This document shows, one piece after another, positions 1-11,899 of a DNA stretch of 64,000 nucleotides. Position 1 is the stretch's first letter. The number at the start of each line of letters is the position of its first letter. Under the pieces are notes generated by a model, which worked only from the letters and a program-made list of their open reading frames with translations, ran no database searches and was not told where the DNA came from. The position numbers and the translations under genes were made by a program. Origin of the DNA: Dehalococcoidia bacterium (GTDB lineage: Bacteria > Chloroflexota > Dehalococcoidia > UBA2979); the NCBI GenBank assembly GCA_965262725.1, contig OZ253555.1:1952001-2016000 (forward strand), given 5' to 3'.

Positions 1-112
1 CGCACGTCTGCACGTCCAGCACCGGGACCTCATATGGATGCCTCGGTTGTCAAGCCCCGTCCAGCGGTACTTGAACGTCCGGTCTGCTGCGGCGGCGGTC
101 GCGCGAGGATGA

Positions 113-336
113 CGACTCCGGGGTGGCGAAGGAGGGATGAGCGGGAATTGTTCGACGTCTTGTCACTCTCATATTCGCGGGTTGCCAGTGGCAGAGCCGC
201 ATGACCCTTCTTCGTCAGGAGCAGGCGCATTCTGATATCGCGGGTTGGCGACGCGAAGCGTCGTTGCCGCATGGTTCCGTCGCGCAGTCTCCGAAACGTA
301 GTCCCGCTTATCCGTCCTTCACCGCCCCCGGAGTCG
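113..336 (-). ncRNA. putative bridge/seek RNA unit 2 (copy 1)
   Basis: Mirror of 6292-6515. Confidence 0.72.
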
Positions 337-613
337 AGGTCCCCGCCCTCCGCGGCCAGCTCCGCTGCATGCTCCTCACTCGCGGCGATGCCTGAGAGCC
401 CCTGCTCCGTCGGGCGGATGTGCTCATCCGTCATCTCGACCCTCTGCAGGTAGCTGCCGAAGGCCGCCTGGGCGCCCTTCTCCTGGAAGGAGAGGAAGCG
501 CGGACAGCGCCGGCGCTCGTGCGCCCAGCAGGACTTCCCATAATGGTGCCGCGCGAGCAGCGAGCACCCCGCCGACGGCTGCTGCGCCGTCTTGCGCGGC
601 CGCGCGAAGATGA

Positions 614-837
614 CGACTCCGGGGTGGCGAAGGAGGGATGAGCGGGAATCACTCGACGTTGTGTCACTCTCATAGTCGCGGGTTGCCAGTGGCAGAGCCG
701 CATGACCTTTCTTCGTCGGGAGGGGGCGCCGTCTGGGAACGCGGGTTGGCGACGCTTCGCGTCGTTGCCGCATGGTCCCGTCGCGCGATCTCCAGAATGT
801 GGTCCCGTTCATCCGTCCTTCACCGCCCCCGGAGTCG
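614..837 (-). ncRNA. putative bridge/seek RNA unit 1 (copy 1)
   Basis: Mirror of 5791-6014. Confidence 0.78.
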
Positions 838-903
838 ACGTCTCCGCCCTCCGCGGCCGGTCTGTCCTCCTCTCCGTCCGCTCCCTGTTCGTGGCCAGCC
901 GGC

Positions 904-2016
904 TCAGGCGGCCTGCTGCCGCTCTTCAGCGTGGGTGCGCAGCACCGCCCAGATGGCGGCGAGCAGCTCCCGCGCCACGGCCACGACGGCGACCTGCGAC
1001 GGCTTGCCTCGCTCCTTGAGATGCCGGTAGCGCCGGGACATCCGGGAACCGGTCTTGTCGGCCATCGCGACCGCCCAGCCCGGCTGGCCCTCCCGCCGTC
1101 TGCGCAGCGGCGCCCCGACGCGGTACGGGCGGATGCTGTGCCAGCCCGCCTCGACCAGCACGCGCCGGACGTGCTCGTTCCCCGTCTTGGTGATGCCGCC
1201 GCGCCGCGTCCTCGGGCCTGAGCTGTGCTCGCTCGCCACCAGCCCCACGTACGCTGCCAGCTGGTCGGGGCTTCCGAATCGCGTGATATCGCCGAGCTCG
1301 CCCAGGATCGTCATGGCGGTGACCGTGTCGATGCCGCGGAAGCAGCGGAGGAGTCCCGCCTCCGGCGCATACTCCTCACTCGCGACGATGTCTGAGAGCC
1401 TCTGCTCCATCAGGCGGATGTGTTCATCCGCCATCTCCACGCGCTGCAGGTAGCCGTCGAATGCCGCCTGGTCGCCCAGCTCCTCGAAGGAGAGCGAGCG
1501 CAGCCAGCACCGGTGCTCTCGGGTCCACGTAGACTTACCATAATGGTGGCCCGAGCGCAGCAGGAACCCCGACAGTTGCATCTGGGCCGTCTTGCGGGCC
1601 GCAACGGCGTCCTCGCGCCCACGGGTGAGGTTGCGCACAGATTCCTGCCGCTCAGTCGGCTGGTGCACCTCGGTGAGCAGTCCCGCGCGCAAGAGATGCG
1701 CCAGGTTCCGCGCGTCGCGGCGGTCCGTCTTGACGCGGTCTCCCGGCTTTGTGGGGATCAGCGCCGGCGCGATGACGCGGCAGTCGATCCCCTTCGCATC
1801 GAGAGTGCGCTTCAGCCCGAACCCGGTCGGGCCCGCCTCGTAGCAACAGACCACGGAATCCCCGGCCTCGCGGCGCAGTCGCCGCGCCAGCGCCGCCACG
1901 GACTTCGGCTCGTTGGCGAGCTGCCACTCTTCGGGCTTCTTCTCCCCGTGCAGAACGGAGACGTTGATCGTCCGCGCGTGCACGTCGAGGCCCACGTATA
2001 GCTTCGTCTGGTCCAT
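904..2016 (-). CDS. IS110 family transposase/recombinase
   Basis: N-terminal YVGLDVH, CYEAGPTG, KTDRRDA (DEDD); C-terminal GLVASEHSSG..GITKTGN. Confidence 0.96.
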   Translation of the reverse strand: MDQTKLYVGLDVHARTINVSVLHGEKKPEEWQLANEPKSVAALARRLRREAGDSVVCCYEAGPTGFGLKRTLDAKGIDCRVIAPALIPTKPGDRVKTDRRDARNLAHLLRAGLLTEVHQPTERQESVRNLTRGREDAVAARKTAQMQLSGFLLRSGHHYGKSTWTREHRCWLRSLSFEELGDQAAFDGYLQRVEMADEHIRLMEQRLSDIVASEEYAPEAGLLRCFRGIDTVTAMTILGELGDITRFGSPDQLAAYVGLVASEHSSGPRTRRGGITKTGNEHVRRVLVEAGWHSIRPYRVGAPLRRRREGQPGWAVAMADKTGSRMSRRYRHLKERGKPSQVAVVAVARELLAAIWAVLRTHAEERQQAA

Positions 2017-2939
2017 CTGGTCTGCCCCCTACCCCTTCCATGTTCCGGTCCGGTTCCGCTCCGATGTTGCACTCGGAACAGAAACCGACACCGGTTCTCA
2101 AGGTGTCGAGGCATCCATAGGGTCTGGGAGGGCTCGGCCTTGTCCCTGCGTGTTGCCACGCCGGGACCGCAACGGAAAGGGCGATTCCGTAATCCGTTGA
2201 CGCACGAGGTCGAGCAATCAGATCCGGCCATAGTAGTGATGAGGGCGGCGAACAAAGAGGAGTAGACACCCTCGGCGGAGTCGACGGAGCGAAGGGCCGG
2301 ACCGGAGGGGAAGCTGGCGAAGCCCGGCACTGGCGGGACACTGCGCCCGCGTTTGGTGTCACTCGGGCTACCCGGCTACGGCACCTCTTGGGTGCCGTCT
2401 GACCTGACGGAGGAGCCGTATGCGTTAACGCGCACGTACGGATCTGTCCGGGGGGCGGCCGGCAACGGCCGTCCCTACCGGAATTGCTCCCTGTGGCTGT
2501 GACGTGATTCGTTGAAAAACCATTGTCCCAGCTACAGCGGAGCACCCAACACCAGCCGCTCGCGCACTCTTCGTTCGGTTTCCGGTAGGGACGCCGGTTA
2601 CCCGGCGCCCCCCGGACAGATCCGTACGTGCGCGCTAGCGCATACGGCTCCTCTCCCGGGTATGACGGTCGGGGCTGAAACGCACCCTGCCGTATCGGCT
2701 CGGACTTCTTGTGCCACAGGTCACCCGGCTCAGTGTCCGGCCCATGTCGAGTCCTCGCAGATTCCCCGCGAGTCCGGCCCTTGGCTCCTCCGACTCCGCA
2801 GAGGCTCGCGCCCCCTTCTATGAGGGTCGTCTGATCCGCAAGGCCGACGTGGCGGCCTTCTGCGCCGTTCTACCGATCGCGCCTCCCGTCCGCAGCCCTG
2901 TGGTGGTTGTCGGTGCCGATGCGAGTGGTGCCGCCGTCT

Positions 2940-3100
2940 TGTCCCCGGGACGTTGTGGTGACCGTGCTTCTATTCGCACTCGTCGAGGGGCCGCTCCGGG
3001 CCCGGTGCATGATGATCAGCCTGTCTCCAGGGTGTGGGCGCTGCCATCTTGTTCCCGTCCTCGTTGGGACCAGGGGGTTCCGCAGTCGCCCGCGTGTCGG
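2940..3100 (-). ncRNA. putative bridge/seek RNA of IS element B (boundaries approximate)
   Basis: Guide-like segments CCCCCT and GAACAAG match the target; TCATC and ATAGAAG match the circle junction. Confidence 0.65.
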
Positions 3101-3163
3101 CATCTCTCGTATCCTCCGAAGCCCACCGGCCGCCCGGTCGCCTCGCTCCTCGCGTGCTGTCTG

Positions 3164-4255
3164 CTACGCCGCCTCGGCCGCGCGCGCGTGGCGCAACGGC
3201 TCGTAGACCTCCCCGCTCTTCCAGAGCGCAAGCATCAGCACCGCCAGTCGCCTCGCGACCGCGACGACGGCACGCTTCTTCGCATTGCCGGCCCCCGACT
3301 CCGCGTAACGCAGCCCCCACCTGCGGAGGTCGCTGTCGGGGCCGAAGGGGCCCAGGATGTAGTGCGCGGCCTGGTTCAGCACCCGGCGCAGCGCCACGTC
3401 CCCTTCCTTCGTGATCCGCAGCTGGGGCTGCCGATCACCGGAATCGCGGCTCCGGGGCACCAGCCCCAGGTAGGGCCCCACCTCCCTGTTCTTGGGGAAG
3501 CGGGCCGGGTCCTCGATGGTGAGGATGAAGGTGAGCGAGGTGATCGGGCCGACGCCCACGATCTGCCGCAGCGCGCCGGTCTCCGCGTAGCGCTCGCACA
3601 TCGCGGCGAACTTCTTGTCGGCCTGGCGGATCTCCCCGGTCAGCTGCTCGATCTGGTGGAGCACCGGCAGCAGCGCCGGGCCCAGCTCCTCGGGGATGTG
3701 CTCTCTGACCGCGCGGTGGAAGGCCGGCGCCGTGCAGCCCGGAAGCGCCGCGCCCCACGCCTTCACCGCGCCCCGGACGTGGTTGATGAACATCGTGCGC
3801 GCCCGGACCAGCGCCTCGCGGCTGCGGAGCACCTGGAGGTCCGCCTGCGCCATGGCGCTTCGGTGCCGGATGGGGAAGAGGAGCGCCGGGTCGAATCGGC
3901 CGAGCCGTGCGAGGTGCTCGGCATCGGAGCGGTCGGTCTTGCGCTGGCTGCGCGCGATCAGCCTGACCTGCCTCGGGTTGGCGACGATCACGTCGTGACC
4001 GAGCTCCGCGAACATCCGGCTCAGCCACGGGGACCGCGGCCCCACCTCCATCACCACCCGGGCGCCCTGCAGTGGGGTGAGCGCCCGCGTGAGCGCCGCG
4101 GTCGTGGTGCGGACTCGCTCCTCCCGCACGATCTCCCCGTCGCCACCGAGGACGCAGAGGTGGCTGTAGCGGTCGCTGACGTCGATGCCGACAGTCACGA
4201 GCTCCGCATCCCCCACCTTCCTGCTCTCTGTGACATCTGATGTACGCTGTGCCAC
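3164..4255 (-). CDS. IS110 family transposase (IS1111 group)
   Basis: VGIDVSD, VMEVG, KTDRSDA, GLVPRSRDSG..ITKEGD; GTG start after AGGAG. Confidence 0.94.
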   Translation of the reverse strand: MAQRTSDVTESRKVGDAELVTVGIDVSDRYSHLCVLGGDGEIVREERVRTTTAALTRALTPLQGARVVMEVGPRSPWLSRMFAELGHDVIVANPRQVRLIARSQRKTDRSDAEHLARLGRFDPALLFPIRHRSAMAQADLQVLRSREALVRARTMFINHVRGAVKAWGAALPGCTAPAFHRAVREHIPEELGPALLPVLHQIEQLTGEIRQADKKFAAMCERYAETGALRQIVGVGPITSLTFILTIEDPARFPKNREVGPYLGLVPRSRDSGDRQPQLRITKEGDVALRRVLNQAAHYILGPFGPDSDLRRWGLRYAESGAGNAKKRAVVAVARRLAVLMLALWKSGEVYEPLRHARAAEAA

Positions 4256-4611
4256 GGTCGGTCTCCTACCTCTCTCGGCTCGCCTGAGCCGTTCTCCTGG
4301 GCCACCACGTGAGCCCGTGCTTGGAGGGGAAGTATCCCCTCTGAGGAGGGGACCGACCCTCATGTCATCTTGTTCGCCGGTCTCACAGCTACTATGGCCG
4401 AATCAGATTGCTTCACGGCGTACATCAGCGGCGTACGGCTTCTACCTTCCCGCTGCGGCCCCCCCGACAGGAACTGTCACAGGGGCACCGTGGAGCCCTC
4501 CCAGACCCTATGGATGCCTCGACACCTTGAGAACCGGTGTCGGTTTCTGTTCCGAGTGCAACATCGGAGCGGAACCGGACCGGAACATGGAAGGGGTAGG
4601 GGGCAGACCAG

Positions 4612-5724
4612 ATGGACCAGACGAAGCTATACGTGGGCCTCGACGTGCACGCGCGGACGATCAACGTCTCCGTTCTGCACGGGGAGAAGAAGCCCGAAGA
4701 GTGGCAGCTCGCCAACGAGCCGAAGTCCGTGGCGGCGCTGGCGCGGCGACTGCGCCGCGAGGCCGGGGATTCCGTGGTCTGTTGCTACGAGGCGGGCCCG
4801 ACCGGGTTCGGGCTGAAGCGCACTCTCGATGCGAAGGGGATCGACTGCCGCGTCATCGCGCCGGCGCTGATCCCCACAAAGCCGGGAGACCGCGTCAAGA
4901 CGGACCGCCGCGACGCGCGGAACCTGGCGCATCTCTTGCGCGCGGGACTGCTCACCGAGGTGCACCAGCCGACTGAGCGGCAGGAATCTGTGCGCAACCT
5001 CACCCGTGGGCGCGAGGACGCCGTTGCGGCCCGCAAGACGGCCCAGATGCAACTGTCGGGGTTCCTGCTGCGCTCGGGCCACCATTATGGTAAGTCTACG
5101 TGGACCCGAGAGCACCGGTGCTGGCTGCGCTCGCTCTCCTTCGAGGAGCTGGGCGACCAGGCGGCATTCGACGGCTACCTGCAGCGCGTGGAGATGGCGG
5201 ATGAACACATCCGCCTGATGGAGCAGAGGCTCTCAGACATCGTCGCGAGTGAGGAGTATGCGCCGGAGGCGGGACTCCTCCGCTGCTTCCGCGGCATCGA
5301 CACGGTCACCGCCATGACGATCCTGGGCGAGCTCGGCGATATCACGCGATTCGGAAGCCCCGACCAGCTGGCAGCGTACGTGGGGCTGGTGGCGAGCGAG
5401 CACAGCTCAGGCCCGAGGACGCGGCGCGGCGGCATCACCAAGACGGGGAACGAGCACGTCCGGCGCGTGCTGGTCGAGGCGGGCTGGCACAGCATCCGCC
5501 CGTACCGCGTCGGGGCGCCGCTGCGCAGACGGCGGGAGGGCCAGCCGGGCTGGGCGGTCGCGATGGCCGACAAGACCGGTTCCCGGATGTCCCGGCGCTA
5601 CCGGCATCTCAAGGAGCGAGGCAAGCCGTCGCAGGTCGCCGTCGTGGCCGTGGCGCGGGAGCTGCTCGCCGCCATCTGGGCGGTGCTGCGCACCCACGCT
5701 GAAGAGCGGCAGCAGGCCGCCTGA
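4612..5724 (+). CDS. IS110 family transposase/recombinase
   Basis: Identical protein to 904..2016. Confidence 0.96.
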   Translation: MDQTKLYVGLDVHARTINVSVLHGEKKPEEWQLANEPKSVAALARRLRREAGDSVVCCYEAGPTGFGLKRTLDAKGIDCRVIAPALIPTKPGDRVKTDRRDARNLAHLLRAGLLTEVHQPTERQESVRNLTRGREDAVAARKTAQMQLSGFLLRSGHHYGKSTWTREHRCWLRSLSFEELGDQAAFDGYLQRVEMADEHIRLMEQRLSDIVASEEYAPEAGLLRCFRGIDTVTAMTILGELGDITRFGSPDQLAAYVGLVASEHSSGPRTRRGGITKTGNEHVRRVLVEAGWHSIRPYRVGAPLRRRREGQPGWAVAMADKTGSRMSRRYRHLKERGKPSQVAVVAVARELLAAIWAVLRTHAEERQQAA

Positions 5725-5790
5725 GCCGGCTGGCCACGAACAGGGAGCGGACGGAGAGGAGGACAGACCGGCCGCGGAGGGCGGAGACGT

Positions 5791-6014
5791 CGACTCCGGG
5801 GGCGGTGAAGGACGGATGAACGGGACCACATTCTGGAGATCGCGCGACGGGACCATGCGGCAACGACGCGAAGCGTCGCCAACCCGCGTTCCCAGACGGC
5901 GCCCCCTCCCGACGAAGAAAGGTCATGCGGCTCTGCCACTGGCAACCCGCGACTATGAGAGTGACACAACGTCGAGTGATTCCCGCTCATCCCTCCTTCG
6001 CCACCCCGGAGTCG
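5791..6014 (+). ncRNA. putative bridge/seek RNA unit 1
   Basis: Closing stem CGACTCCGGGG/CCCCGGAGTCG; two loops with scaffold guide-ATGCGG-hairpin-AACCCGCG-guide whose guides match target and donor. Confidence 0.78.
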
Positions 6015-6029
6015 TCATCTTCGCGCGGC

Positions 6030-6265
6030 CGCGCAAGACGGCGCAGCAGCCGTCGGCGGGGTGCTCGCTGCTCGCGCGGCACCATTATGGGAAGTCCTGC
6101 TGGGCGCACGAGCGCCGGCGCTGTCCGCGCTTCCTCTCCTTCCAGGAGAAGGGCGCCCAGGCGGCCTTCGGCAGCTACCTGCAGAGGGTCGAGATGACGG
6201 ATGAGCACATCCGCCCGACGGAGCAGGGGCTCTCAGGCATCGCCGCGAGTGAGGAGCATGCAGCG
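6030..6265 (+). pseudogene. degenerate internal fragment of a related IS110 transposase
   Basis: HHYGKS..YLQRVEMTDEHIR..EQ.LS.IAASEE resembles ~5030-5265. Confidence 0.8.
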
Positions 6266-6291
6266 GAGCTGGCCGCGGAGGGCGGGGACCT

Positions 6292-6515
6292 CGACTCCGG
6301 GGGCGGTGAAGGACGGATAAGCGGGACTACGTTTCGGAGACTGCGCGACGGAACCATGCGGCAACGACGCTTCGCGTCGCCAACCCGCGATATCAGAATG
6401 CGCCTGCTCCTGACGAAGAAGGGTCATGCGGCTCTGCCACTGGCAACCCGCGAATATGAGAGTGACAAGACGTCGAACAATTCCCGCTCATCCCTCCTTC
6501 GCCACCCCGGAGTCG
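6292..6515 (+). ncRNA. putative bridge/seek RNA unit 2 (different target guides)
   Basis: Diverged copy of unit 1, offset 501 nt; donor guides conserved, target guides CGGAACC/ATATCAG. Confidence 0.72.
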
Positions 6516-6899
6516 TCATCCTCGCGCGACCGCCGCCGCAGCAGACCGGACGTTCAAGTACCGCTGGACGGGGCTTGACAACCGAGGCATCCATATGAGG
6601 TCCCGGCGATAGACGTGTGCGCGTGCATGGGGTTCTTCGACACCGTGGGGCCCGACCACGACTCGCCAATAGCGCCGTCGCCGGTATTGCCTTCGACCAA
6701 TCCAAAAGCCTCGACACCCCAAATGGCCCTTTCGATGCTCATTAGCCCCGCCCGCACACCCCGCTGCCGACGCTTCACAAGCCGCCTCGCGACGACCCGC
6801 GCACGGCTCGCGGAATGACATGAGTGGCTAACTCTTTGCCATAGAGGACTTCCACCTCCTGCCTACTCGCCAGTTAGCCTGGCGCTCTGGATCAGGGCT

Positions 6900-11037: not shown

Positions 11038-11899
11038 GTGCGTCCGGAAGTCGAAGGGGTGGTGACGTGATGACGTGACCGGTCCGGAGACATGCTCGTT
11101 GCTGCCAGCCGGTGAGAGTCCGGCACGGGTAACTGTCAGGAGGCCCGTTAGCAGGTCGGCGGCGTGGACGGGAAACGGTCTGCGTCGAAGCCCGACGTCA
11201 AGAGCCCTATGAGGGGGAGCAAACGTGCGGTCCGCAGCATGACGCGAAGTCTGCCGCGCCGTGAGACTCGCCTGTCTATTGACAGGACCAAGGAGGAGCC
11301 GAGCCCGGGTGGTCAGGGCGAAGGCCATGGACGAGGTGAAGATCCTGGAATGCAGCCTCAAGAAACCTCCCGGCGTATGGGACGTGGAACGTACGGAAGG
11401 TAGCGACGGGAACCGGAGAAGCCCTCCCCGGCCCGGCACCCTGTGAGAGGGCGTCGGAGCGAGGCGTCCTATAACCGGTCAGAGCCGGGAAGTGGACAGC
11501 CAGCCGGAAGGGTGGCGGAGGGGGTCGTAGTACCGCTGGAGCCGGACGGACAACATAACCGCCGGTGATGGGAAGGACCCCTACTTTGTCCGTGCATGTT
11601 GCTGGGGGTGTGGACTGGTGAGTGCCCCTCGGGGCTAGCAACCACTTGGTAGGGTTCGAGGCTCTCCGCACATGCTGTACCGGCTGGCCAAGGCACGACC
11701 CACGTTGTGGGGAGCGCTGCATGCCATCTGGTGAAGGGCATCGGTGAGCCGGATGAGGGAGAACCTCACGTCCGGTTCGATGTGGCAGGGGCTGGAGACG
11801 GACGCTGCTATGGCCGTGGAGTTGGGCACCACCGGGAAACCGGCTTGGAACTGATGCGCCACCGCCTACGGCTCGCACCGCGCCAGCCCCTGACCCTAC
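11038..11899 (+). ncRNA. ORF-less group II intron C
   Basis: 5' GTGCG; GGTGAGAGTCC; GTAGTACC..GGGAAGG; domain V GAGCCGGATGAGGGAGAACCTCACGTCCGGTTC; 3' CCCTAC. Confidence 0.88.

Follow-up and report, generated by a model that had tools for sequence, protein, structure and literature searches.

An IS1111-type element of a Dehalococcoidia bacterium with two predicted guide RNA units that share a scaffold and differ in their target loops

A 64,000-nt stretch of DNA from a Dehalococcoidia bacterium (the window; G000:C1:1952001-2016000, taken from the source genome G000, which is 3.67 Mb in one contig) contains a mobile element of the IS110 family with two complete RNA units behind its transposase gene, the units having a common scaffold, near-identical donor loops and differing target loops, as a preliminary description of this DNA had proposed. 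Comparison of the two units with each other, and with those of a sister species of the same genus (G180), suggests that both RNA scaffolds are held by selection. For the roles of the two units we favour a division of labour in which unit 1 would read the target and unit 2 the donor, a reading on which our confidence is evenly poised.

A complete element with two RNA units

The element (copy B; coordinates of all features are collected in Table 1) begins with ACCCTATGG (4505) and finishes with CATATGAG (6599), the longer readings of its ends being ACCCTATGGATGCCTCG... at the left and ...CGAGGCATCCATATGAG at the right, and an inverted copy A in the same window shows no difference from it over 2,094 compared bases. 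The transposase matches PF01548 (DEDD_Tnp_IS110; 64.3 bits, cut-off 29), PF02371 (Transposase_20; 75.8 bits, cut-off 21.3) and the NCBIfam model NF033542, 'IS110 family RNA-guided transposase' (235.5 bits, cut-off 140). Non-coding DNA amounts to 875 nt 3' of the stop codon (5725-6599) against 107 nt 5' of the start codon (4505-4611), and the sub-terminal inverted repeats, 13 nt in length, have corresponding repeats in relatives. Following the definitions given in passages of PMC11187229 and PMC11208160, this long 3' non-coding region and the sub-terminal inverted repeats place the element in the IS1111 group of the IS110 family, and every feature of membership that was tested is present. Copies A and B both lie within group II introns (RF02005 for that of copy B, 170.2 bits; Rfam), and contigs from three of four public DNA runs contain the empty site CCCAG|GTCCCGG, in which position 4504 is joined directly to GTCCCGG. 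The core dinucleotide is common to both junctions, the left flanks ending in ..CCAG (13/13) and the element itself in ..GAG. A scan of 4400-6700 for sigma-70-type promoters and for terminators gave no site of either kind, a result that says little as it covers the consensus sigma-70 type only.

The two units form a direct repeat of 263 nt (5770-6032 and 6271-6533; 88% identical, spacing 501) at the place where the preliminary description had put them. The inverted repeat that it gave as closing each unit was recovered (5781-5801/6004-6024 and 6282-6302/6505-6525), all the guide strings that it quoted were found in units 1 and 2, and the mirrored units that it reported for copy A are real, each being matched by our covariance model R1. 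Unit 1, at about 229 nt, folds at -118.4 kcal/mol (z -6.07) and unit 2, of the same length, at -110 kcal/mol (z -5.99), none of 200 shuffles being as stable in either case, and the two remain separate domains when the whole 766-nt stretch is folded. The consensus structure comprises 68 pairs, with a long outer stem around two modules, each of stem, internal loop and hairpin; in each module the 5' arm can pair with the top strand to the right of the core AG, whilst the 3' arm reads as the top strand does to its left. As modelled, this is the layout of a bridge RNA.

The covariance model was built from the G000 units, the G180 units and two single units of another genus. Among 15 distinct family members 92.5% of cells are paired and 33 of the 68 pairs have changed on both sides, values reached by none of 500 shuffles, whilst slid controls were 36-48% paired. 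No family in Rfam 15 matched the units at E up to 1, the only matches in the neighbourhood being to group II intron models. The units thus carry every feature of bridge/seek RNAs that was tested, from which a role as guide RNAs is predicted. Target arms differ among related elements. Wherever the left end is visible (six loci: L010, L022 and those of genus g4), its first 5 bases are matched by the donor 5' arm. Of ten relatives with a visible right end nine were read, and in seven of these the donor 3' arm agrees with the last 7 bases, L089 not being read separately because its unit is identical to that of L080. Both exceptions have a mismatch at -6 (L083, and L088, where it results from a 1-base deletion in the end of the element).

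All 13 of the elements seen have two units, four of them in G000 and nine in G180. A covariance-model search of the order (E up to 1e-5), in which unit counts are lower bounds, found units in at least 10 of 99 genomes; among the matches listed, two units lie within 1 kb of each other in G000 (4 elements) and G180 (9) and nowhere else, and the other eight genomes hold at least about 40 unit places, all single, with the closest two 8.5 kb apart. Counting units per element in homologues, a check that had been put forward together with the two-unit proposal, therefore gives two in G000 and G180 and one elsewhere. No second unit was found in six homologous loci with room for one, searched with filters off (best extra match 16.5 bits), and three further genomes of the genus (73-87% complete) gave no unit match. 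In a class-wide scan the exact target-loop hairpin matched 3 of 401 genomes, and the pattern of this hairpin matched no stretch of the metagenome collection scanned, where relatives of the transposase reach at most 44% identity, except for one 39-residue segment at 59%.

The nine G180 copies occupy nine unrelated places, with no difference among the eight compared; it is the two-unit form that moves. The view of the element as a natural guide array stands in so far as the two units have a common scaffold and target arms that differ at four positions, and falls short in that the number of units is constant. An expandable array does not agree with what was found, namely always exactly two units, the outcome of one partial duplication, in two species of one genus only.

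Several further observations concern the copies and their relatives. In the fourth genome copy (G000:C1:2020977-2025007) unit 2 is split by an insertion of ~4 kb, with the 9-bp TGAGAATGA on both sides of it, pointing to another mobile element that duplicates 9 bp of its target. At G180:C2:1407587-1413911 (L009) the transposase gene is interrupted after ~1,170 bp, the two units following ~4 kb further on. Two metagenomic relatives with a 43% identical transposase have ~415 nt between the gene and a single unit (L048, 2109-2522; L049, 1333-1746), the gap in most relatives being <100 nt, and the model finds no second unit in either. Contigs of the public runs also carry sister-element units with other guide arms (loose ends at 6356 in run X1 and at 5930 in run X4), one of which resembles L016 and one of which has the donor arm ATATCAG, so that several members of this RNA family co-occur in those samples.

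Origin and maintenance of the second unit

Between the units, the spacer reproduces part of the transposase gene without gaps, an origin that was absent from the preliminary description. It differs from the gene at 50 of 237 bases, with 17, 18 and 15 differences at codon positions 1, 2 and 3, and the codon differences comprise 30 non-synonymous and 8 synonymous ones; this even spread over codon positions and the mostly non-synonymous changes identify the spacer as a product of neutral decay, not of divergence of a working gene. A copy of the transposase gene in this position also tells how the second unit arose, which by the sequence appears to be by partial tandem duplication. The simplest history has two steps. 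A tandem duplication would have started midway through tnp and ended shortly beyond the RNA gene, and an internal deletion would then have removed the rest of the duplicated gene, giving the order left end, tnp, unit 1, tnp fragment, unit 2, right end. An identical arrangement would result if two whole elements had lain in tandem and then suffered deletions. At both joints, that after unit 1 and that between the gene fragment and the lead-in of unit 2, the joined parts have short G+C-rich similarity to each other. Half-matches to the donor arm were sought at the repeat boundaries, and neither ACCCT nor ATGAG occurs at the joint after unit 1 (…TTCGCGCGGCC|GCGCAAGACGG…) or at the boundary of the internal deletion.

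Three alleles of the spacer are present: the long form, in copies A and B (cA, cB) and in contigs of the four public runs, a form with 123 nt missing (c1), and one with 117-120 nt missing (c4 and G180). All the deletions start directly after the closing stem of unit 1 and stop well short of unit 2, and the alleles suggest that the spacer is still shrinking by deletion. The contigs from the public runs break within the stretch common to both units, and so cannot reveal one-unit recombinants; stretches of those runs without contig cover prove nothing.

The aligned units, of 229 nt, have 28 differences. Random decay of unit 2, which the preliminary description had named as the outcome that would speak against it, is not the pattern observed: the stems account for 3 of the differences in 136 columns and the unpaired stretches for 25 in 93 (Fisher p = 1.9e-8), and the three changes in stems amount to one pair broken in unit 1, one broken in unit 2 and one change of G-C to G-U. 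The unpaired columns, at 27% different, are comparable to the spacer fragment at 21% (p = 0.31), whilst the paired columns, at 2.2%, are not (p = 5e-8). With the other genus as outgroup, unit 1 has 6 derived changes and unit 2 has 11 (p = 0.33). Between G000 and G180, 6 of 150 spacer bases have changed against 4 of 450 in the units (p = 0.019), and the transposase gene has changed at 21 of 1,113 bases. On this substitution pattern neither unit resembles a pseudogene. The structure used to class the columns was predicted from an alignment containing both units, and the wider family gives it independent support.

Guide loops and possible roles of the two units

The four G000 copies are all flanked by ..CTCCCAG and GTCCCGG.., three of them with identical 40-nt flanks on both sides, and these three may therefore not be independent events. 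In G180 the left flanks end in CCAG in 9/9 cases, and the eight right flanks examined start with GTCCC (6), GTCTC (1) or GTCCT (1), the ninth element being interrupted; all 12 right junctions of the two species thus start with GTC (GTCCC 10, GTCTC 1, GTCCT 1). The match between the target loop of unit 1 and the intron site, which had been noted for one insertion, extends to every junction, this loop fitting 13/13 on the left and 12/12 on the right and being invariant across copies. Judged by these junctions the unit 1 target loop specifies every insertion seen, with an effective site of about CCAG|GTCC, and with a preference for a hairpin in group II introns (full target sequences, CTCCCAGGTCCCG for unit 1 and, as predicted, ATATCAGGTTCCG for unit 2). 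The proposal of one recombinase with two programmed targets fared less well: no left (0/13) and no right (0/12) junction fits unit 2, and the junction motifs expected of an insertion at a unit 2-type site (TCAG|GTTCC) are absent from G000. At a length of nine letters, G180 has 31 empty sites of the unit 1 kind and 12 of the unit 2 kind, and G000 has 40 and 18, so that with equal use per site the probability of zero unit 2-type events is 0.08 in G180 (0/9) and 0.25 in G000 (0/4). Taking the availability of sites together with the lack of events, the target loop of unit 2 is at best less used than that of unit 1.

The donor loops were also claimed to be conserved and to match the circle junction, which is so for unit 2 and only in part for unit 1. 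The arms of unit 2, AAGGGTC and A/GATATGAG, fit ACCCT (5/5) and ATATGAG (7/7) in both species and are invariant, whereas those of unit 1 are mismatched and variable, fitting in G000 4/5 of the left end, with an A opposite C4, and 6/7 of the right end. In G180 the unit 1 donor 3' arm is ACTATCAG, with a mismatch 3 bases from the end, and this version has spread to nine sites; copy c1 has an A at the same position (5957), which therefore has three states overall. Positions 5920 and 5957 are the only variable sites in the 225 nt of unit 1 and both lie within the 15 donor-arm positions, the chance of which is ~0.004, and a mismatch 5 bases or fewer from the end is found in none of the ten single-unit relatives with a visible right end.

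A target loop in unit 1 that is used and invariant, a donor loop in unit 1 that is variable, and a donor loop in unit 2 that is perfect and invariant together favour the division of labour, and the pattern is what relaxed selection on a redundant loop would give. We infer that both units are expressed, are bound by the transposase and cooperate. In IS621 the target and donor loops of one synaptic complex come from two bridge RNA molecules, and separate target-loop (TBL) and donor-loop (DBL) RNAs support recombination in vitro (passages of PMC11208158), which allows for cooperation of two different units; complexes of two donor loops have also been reported to carry out excision (part of bioRxiv 10.64898/2026.08.31.748434). 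If the IS621 arrangement holds here, a two-unit element would supply four freely combining loops, and a transposase dimer with the unit 1 target loop (CGGGACC / UUCCCAG) would pair with a dimer with the unit 2 donor loop (AGGGUC / AUAUGAG), the guide loops of the two units having diverged from each other. The target loop of unit 2 itself (CGGAACC / AUAUCAG) is intact and would be a spare or a rarely used second address. A more specific version, with the two guide RNAs as target specialist and donor specialist and with unit 2 keeping a re-programmed loop, as a standby address or as a reader of the end-to-flank junction, we put forward only tentatively.

A number of points weigh against the division of labour. 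The stems could look as if under purifying selection through gene conversion between the direct repeats, which are spaced by 501 nt, and unit 2, lying between unit 1 and the right end, transposes along whether it is used or not. Its target loop is intact and would be used if the RNA were made and loaded, and no such insertion is seen. IS621 is a distant relative (phmmer against IS621 chains, E = 7e-8 over 92 residues), and its precedent may not hold for IS1111-type elements. Single donor-arm mismatches may be tolerated, as at -6 in L083, and the divergence of the two species is shallow, at 2 differences per unit, so that the argument from drift of the unit 1 donor loop rests on two sites.

The site predicted by the unit 2 target loop bears on what that loop is for. 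The 13-mer occurs exactly once in G000 (C1:2411043-2411055 (-)), where it is empty; 256 of 20,000 composition-matched shuffles of it are present in G000, as are 17 of 256 variants at the four positions that distinguish the loops, at 19 sites. At only two of these 19 sites, that of unit 2 and the empty intron target, is the right arm closely preceded by its own complement, which gives a hairpin, and the ~35 nt around these two look alike. The unit 2 site lies in a 240-nt non-coding repeat with sharp borders, of which G000 has four copies 88-92% identical (Table 1), another genus a 91% identical copy (L068) and G180 a 71% identical one (L069). All four G000 copies are empty, and the site matches 13/13 in one, 12/13 in one and 11/13 in two. 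Several copies of the repeat have a transfer RNA (tRNA)-like T-arm sequence on their 3' side; Rfam gives weak matches only (tRNA-Sec, 23.9 bits; transfer-messenger RNA (tmRNA), 19.9 bits), and ARAGORN reports no tmRNA, a tRNA-Ser in G180 and an odd tRNA-Ala in G251. Two identities considered for the repeat were rejected, that of a diverged group II intron, the best BLAST match to the target intron having E = 0.06 with the likeness confined to ~35 nt, and, for the whole end, that of a right-end relic of a sister element, model R1 finding no unit in the four repeat loci. Other repeats are numerous in G000, including one of ~77 nt, noticed on BLAST of the region of the unit 2 predicted target and present, at 85-88% identity, in >40 places throughout the genome (e.g. 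C1:1963364-1963439, window ~11364-11439), and ones of ~72 nt and ~89 nt.

The 3' arm of the same loop, ATATCAG, is the donor 3' arm in 9 of 10 rows from genera g4 and g13 (alignment A5) and the right-end terminus (CCATATCAG) in all 8 of those rows with a visible right end. Of the 13 positions of the predicted site, 11 also agree with the right junction of the element itself, ATATGAG|GTCCCG. The unit 2 target loop may be a second address, a hybrid produced by conversion from a donor loop, or a reader of a junction, conversion being possible because the target and donor loops share a flanking stem.

Dual addressing, in which one transposase would be led by unit 1 to CCAG|GTCCC and by unit 2 to ATATCAG|GTTCCG-like sites, seems to us unlikely. 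It gains from the intact scaffold and target arms of unit 2, the latter invariant in every copy, from an exact site that is single in G000, rare among shuffles and variants and set in a hairpin within a four-copy repeat, and from the weak significance of the absence of unit 2-type insertions (P 0.08 and 0.25, as above); it has to face the junctions of both sides, not one of which is of the unit 2 type, with no such motif anywhere in G000, and the emptiness of the exact site and of the three near-matching repeat copies. Only one repeat copy reaches 13/13, and its extra match, at +5, is a base inherited in common with the unit 1 arm. G180 has no site within one mismatch, yet the loop is unchanged there, and the ATATCAG arm has a rival origin in the right-end terminus of sister elements. 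That terminus is the starting point of a reading we regard as very improbable, in which the 'target' loop of unit 2 binds the right end-to-flank junction of an integrated copy, its 3' arm being the ancestral terminus ATATCAG and its 5' arm reading the right flank; such a loop could serve excision, copy-out or insertion beside resident sister elements. The identity of the arm with the donor arms and termini of g4 and g13, for which a chance match at the five free positions is estimated at ~0.001, and the likeness of the predicted site to the own right junction argue for it, as do reports of donor-only and half-match reactions and of a truncated target-loop RNA cooperating with a bridge RNA (parts of bioRxiv 10.64898/2026.08.31.748434 and bioRxiv 10.1101/2025.10.25.684509). 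Its mismatches at -3 and +3, however, adjoin the core and have remained uncorrected, the left junction is without a matching hybrid loop, no IS1111-type experiment demonstrates a loop of this kind, and the identity of the arm could equally stem from a one-off gene conversion, the loops sharing the stem CAACCCGCG.

It is also improbable, in our estimate, that unit 2 (or one of the units) is a relic without function, left by the duplication and preserved by conversion or by chance. The unit did arrive with a dead piece of gene, partial tandem duplications of IS110 modules are reported to be common (part of bioRxiv 10.64898/2026.08.14.744561), losing unit 2 would take a precise deletion, one genome copy has it split by the ~4-kb insertion, and its target loop is used by no insertion. 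A relic should nevertheless have diverged like the adjoining fragment, and only the unpaired columns have done so; the differences are scattered over every loop and not gathered in one conversion tract, at least two distinct spacer deletions stopped short of both units, the spacer has changed more than the units between the two species, and unit 2 holds the better of the two donor loops.

Table 1. Positions of the element, its RNA units, guide arms and related features (window coordinates unless a genome and contig are given).
Feature	Position	Strand	Basis or remark
Copy B, complete two-unit IS1111-type element	4505..6599	+	2,095 bp; 4 genome copies share its ends
Copy A, inverted	29..2123	-	100% identity to copy B; RNA units at 612-840 and 111-339 (-) (model R1 matches)
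Left half-target CTCCCAG, final AG = core dinucleotide	4498..4504	+	6/7 match to unit 1 3' target arm TTCCCAG
Left sub-terminal inverted repeat TATGGATGCCTCG	4509..4521	+	complementary to 6583-6595
Transposase gene, 370 aa, IS110-family RNA-guided	4612..5724	+	Pfam and NCBIfam matches
Unit 1, predicted bridge/seek-RNA gene	5788..6016	+	fold, consensus structure, model match 262.1 bits
Unit 1 target loop 5' arm CGGGACC	5848..5854	+	pairs with top strand G|GTCCCG
Unit 1 target loop 3' arm TTCCCAG	5889..5895	+	sense of left target ..CCCAG
Unit 1 donor loop 5' arm AAAGGTC	5918..5924	+	1 mismatch to left end ACCCT; 5920 is A here, G in G180
Unit 1 donor loop 3' arm ACTATGAG	5952..5959	+	5957 is G in cA, cB and c4, A in c1, C in G180
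Spacer, decayed in-frame transposase gene fragment, codons 141-219	6032..6268	+	79% identity to 5032-5268
Unit 2, predicted second bridge/seek-RNA gene, intact scaffold	6289..6517	+	fold, model match 264.1 bits, substitution pattern
Unit 2 target loop 5' arm CGGAACC	6349..6355	+	predicts right half-target G|GTTCCG; invariant in all copies
Unit 2 target loop 3' arm ATATCAG	6390..6396	+	same as right-end terminus and donor arm of another genus's sister elements
Unit 2 donor loop 5' arm AAGGGTC	6419..6425	+	AGGGT pairs 5/5 with left end ACCCT; final C with core G
Unit 2 donor loop 3' arm AATATGAG	6453..6460	+	matches last 7 bases of right end, ATATGAG
Right sub-terminal inverted repeat CGAGGCATCCATA	6583..6595	+	read from sequence
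Right half-target GTCCCG, within minus-strand group II intron	6600..6605	+	RF02005 at 6631-6852 (-)
Repeat copies around the unit 2 predicted site (loci L067, L070, L072, L074)	G000:C1:2410972-2411213, 3384791-3385032, 328868-329118, 1509059-1509271		

Neighbouring elements, known systems and significance

A second, different IS110-family element lies at ~2830-4376 (-) in the same group II intron as copy B, which has thus been hit by two RNA-guided elements. Its open reading frame (3164-4363; NF033542, 214.9 bits) is followed by ~330 nt of non-coding DNA, its inverted repeats read ATGAGGGTCG / CGACCCTCAT, and 70 nt of its left end are repeated at 5 genomic places. Domains V-VI of two group II introns (RF00029), marking the intron 3' ends at 2411-2484 (+; 39.3 bits) and 2580-2652 (-; 36 bits), face each other ~95 nt apart, and each of these introns carries a two-unit copy further upstream.

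The comparisons that follow refer to portions of the papers cited. The element resembles the IS1111 seekRNA elements ISEc11, ISPa11 and ISKpn4 (Siddiquee et al. 2024, PMC11187229) in its DEDD transposase with PF02371, its sub-terminal inverted repeats, a long guide-RNA region 3' of tnp, site-specific insertion into repeated structured DNA, and a segment matching the top strand placed 5' of one matching the bottom strand. It differs from them in having two units 501 nt apart with differing guide loops where they have one RNA region, and in a transposase of 370 aa against the 330-350 aa given for IS1111 transposases. With IS621 (Durrant et al. 2024, PMC11208160; Hiraizumi et al. 2024, PMC11208158) it shares an RNA of two loops, one for the target and one for the donor; the loops of IS621 have two arms around the core dinucleotide and are independently programmable, and the arms are likewise arranged here. 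IS621, however, has one RNA, 5' of tnp, and a CT core, whereas the present element has two RNAs on the 3' side and an AG core.

The expanded IS110 loci of Hu et al. (bioRxiv 10.64898/2026.08.14.744561) also have same-strand duplications of part of a module that include non-coding DNA and adjoin tnp. The repeats there are required to be at least 95% identical, whereas the copies described here are 88% identical and old; in contrast to those loci, the RNA structure has here been selectively kept, to judge from the substitutions, the guides have diverged and the whole composite still transposes. ISPpu9/Ssr9 (Pares-Guillen et al. 2025, PMC12288879) is similar in having an extra RNA gene 3' of tnp, but Ssr9 has its own ends, moves alone and is dispensable for transposition, whilst unit 2 is a full duplicate of the guide without ends of its own. 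Unit 2 was considered as a separately mobile module of the Ssr9 kind, and this was rejected, no solo unit and no internal element end being found in G000. CazIS110 (Sun et al., bioRxiv 10.1101/2025.10.25.684509) likewise has two RNA species from one element; their cooperation is shown there and postulated here, and the second RNA of CazIS110 is a truncated target loop from a single gene, as opposed to two full genes with different loops. Two long non-coding regions are recorded for 26 ISfinder entries (PMC11187229), lying up- and downstream in ISHvo10 and ISAcp5, an arrangement different from the tandem units of the present element.

In the literature searched, with supplementary lists outside its scope, natural elements with two, tandem or multiple bridge or seekRNAs yielded only engineering or unrelated mentions. 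The 'two bridge RNAs' of PMC11208160 are two designed RNAs per site, the word 'bRNAs' is absent from the main text of bioRxiv 10.64898/2026.08.14.744561, and in the passages covered of the survey bioRxiv 10.64898/2026.10.21.760802 'tandem' is not paired with bridge RNAs. What appears to be new here, and was not found described in that literature, is a pair of maintained units with complementary divergence.

Bridge and seek RNAs are under development as programmable recombination tools, and the natural elements described up to now are modelled as one transposase with one RNA. Here two full guide RNAs have been kept in one mobile unit whilst the dead fragment adjoining them diverged by 21%. On the more specific version put forward tentatively above, bridge RNAs that are sub-functionalised or multiplexed would, if it is true, have here their first natural example. 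Even an idle unit 2 would still be a dated example of an RNA structure preserved beside decaying DNA. With four loops, two of them apparently redundant, the element is a compact test bed. Should the division of labour between the units be true, it would provide natural evidence that target and donor loops can reside on separate RNAs in the IS1111 branch too, and it would mark out a route by which an element may acquire a new address and keep recognition of its own ends, the RNA being duplicated, one donor loop fixed and the other copy left to explore.

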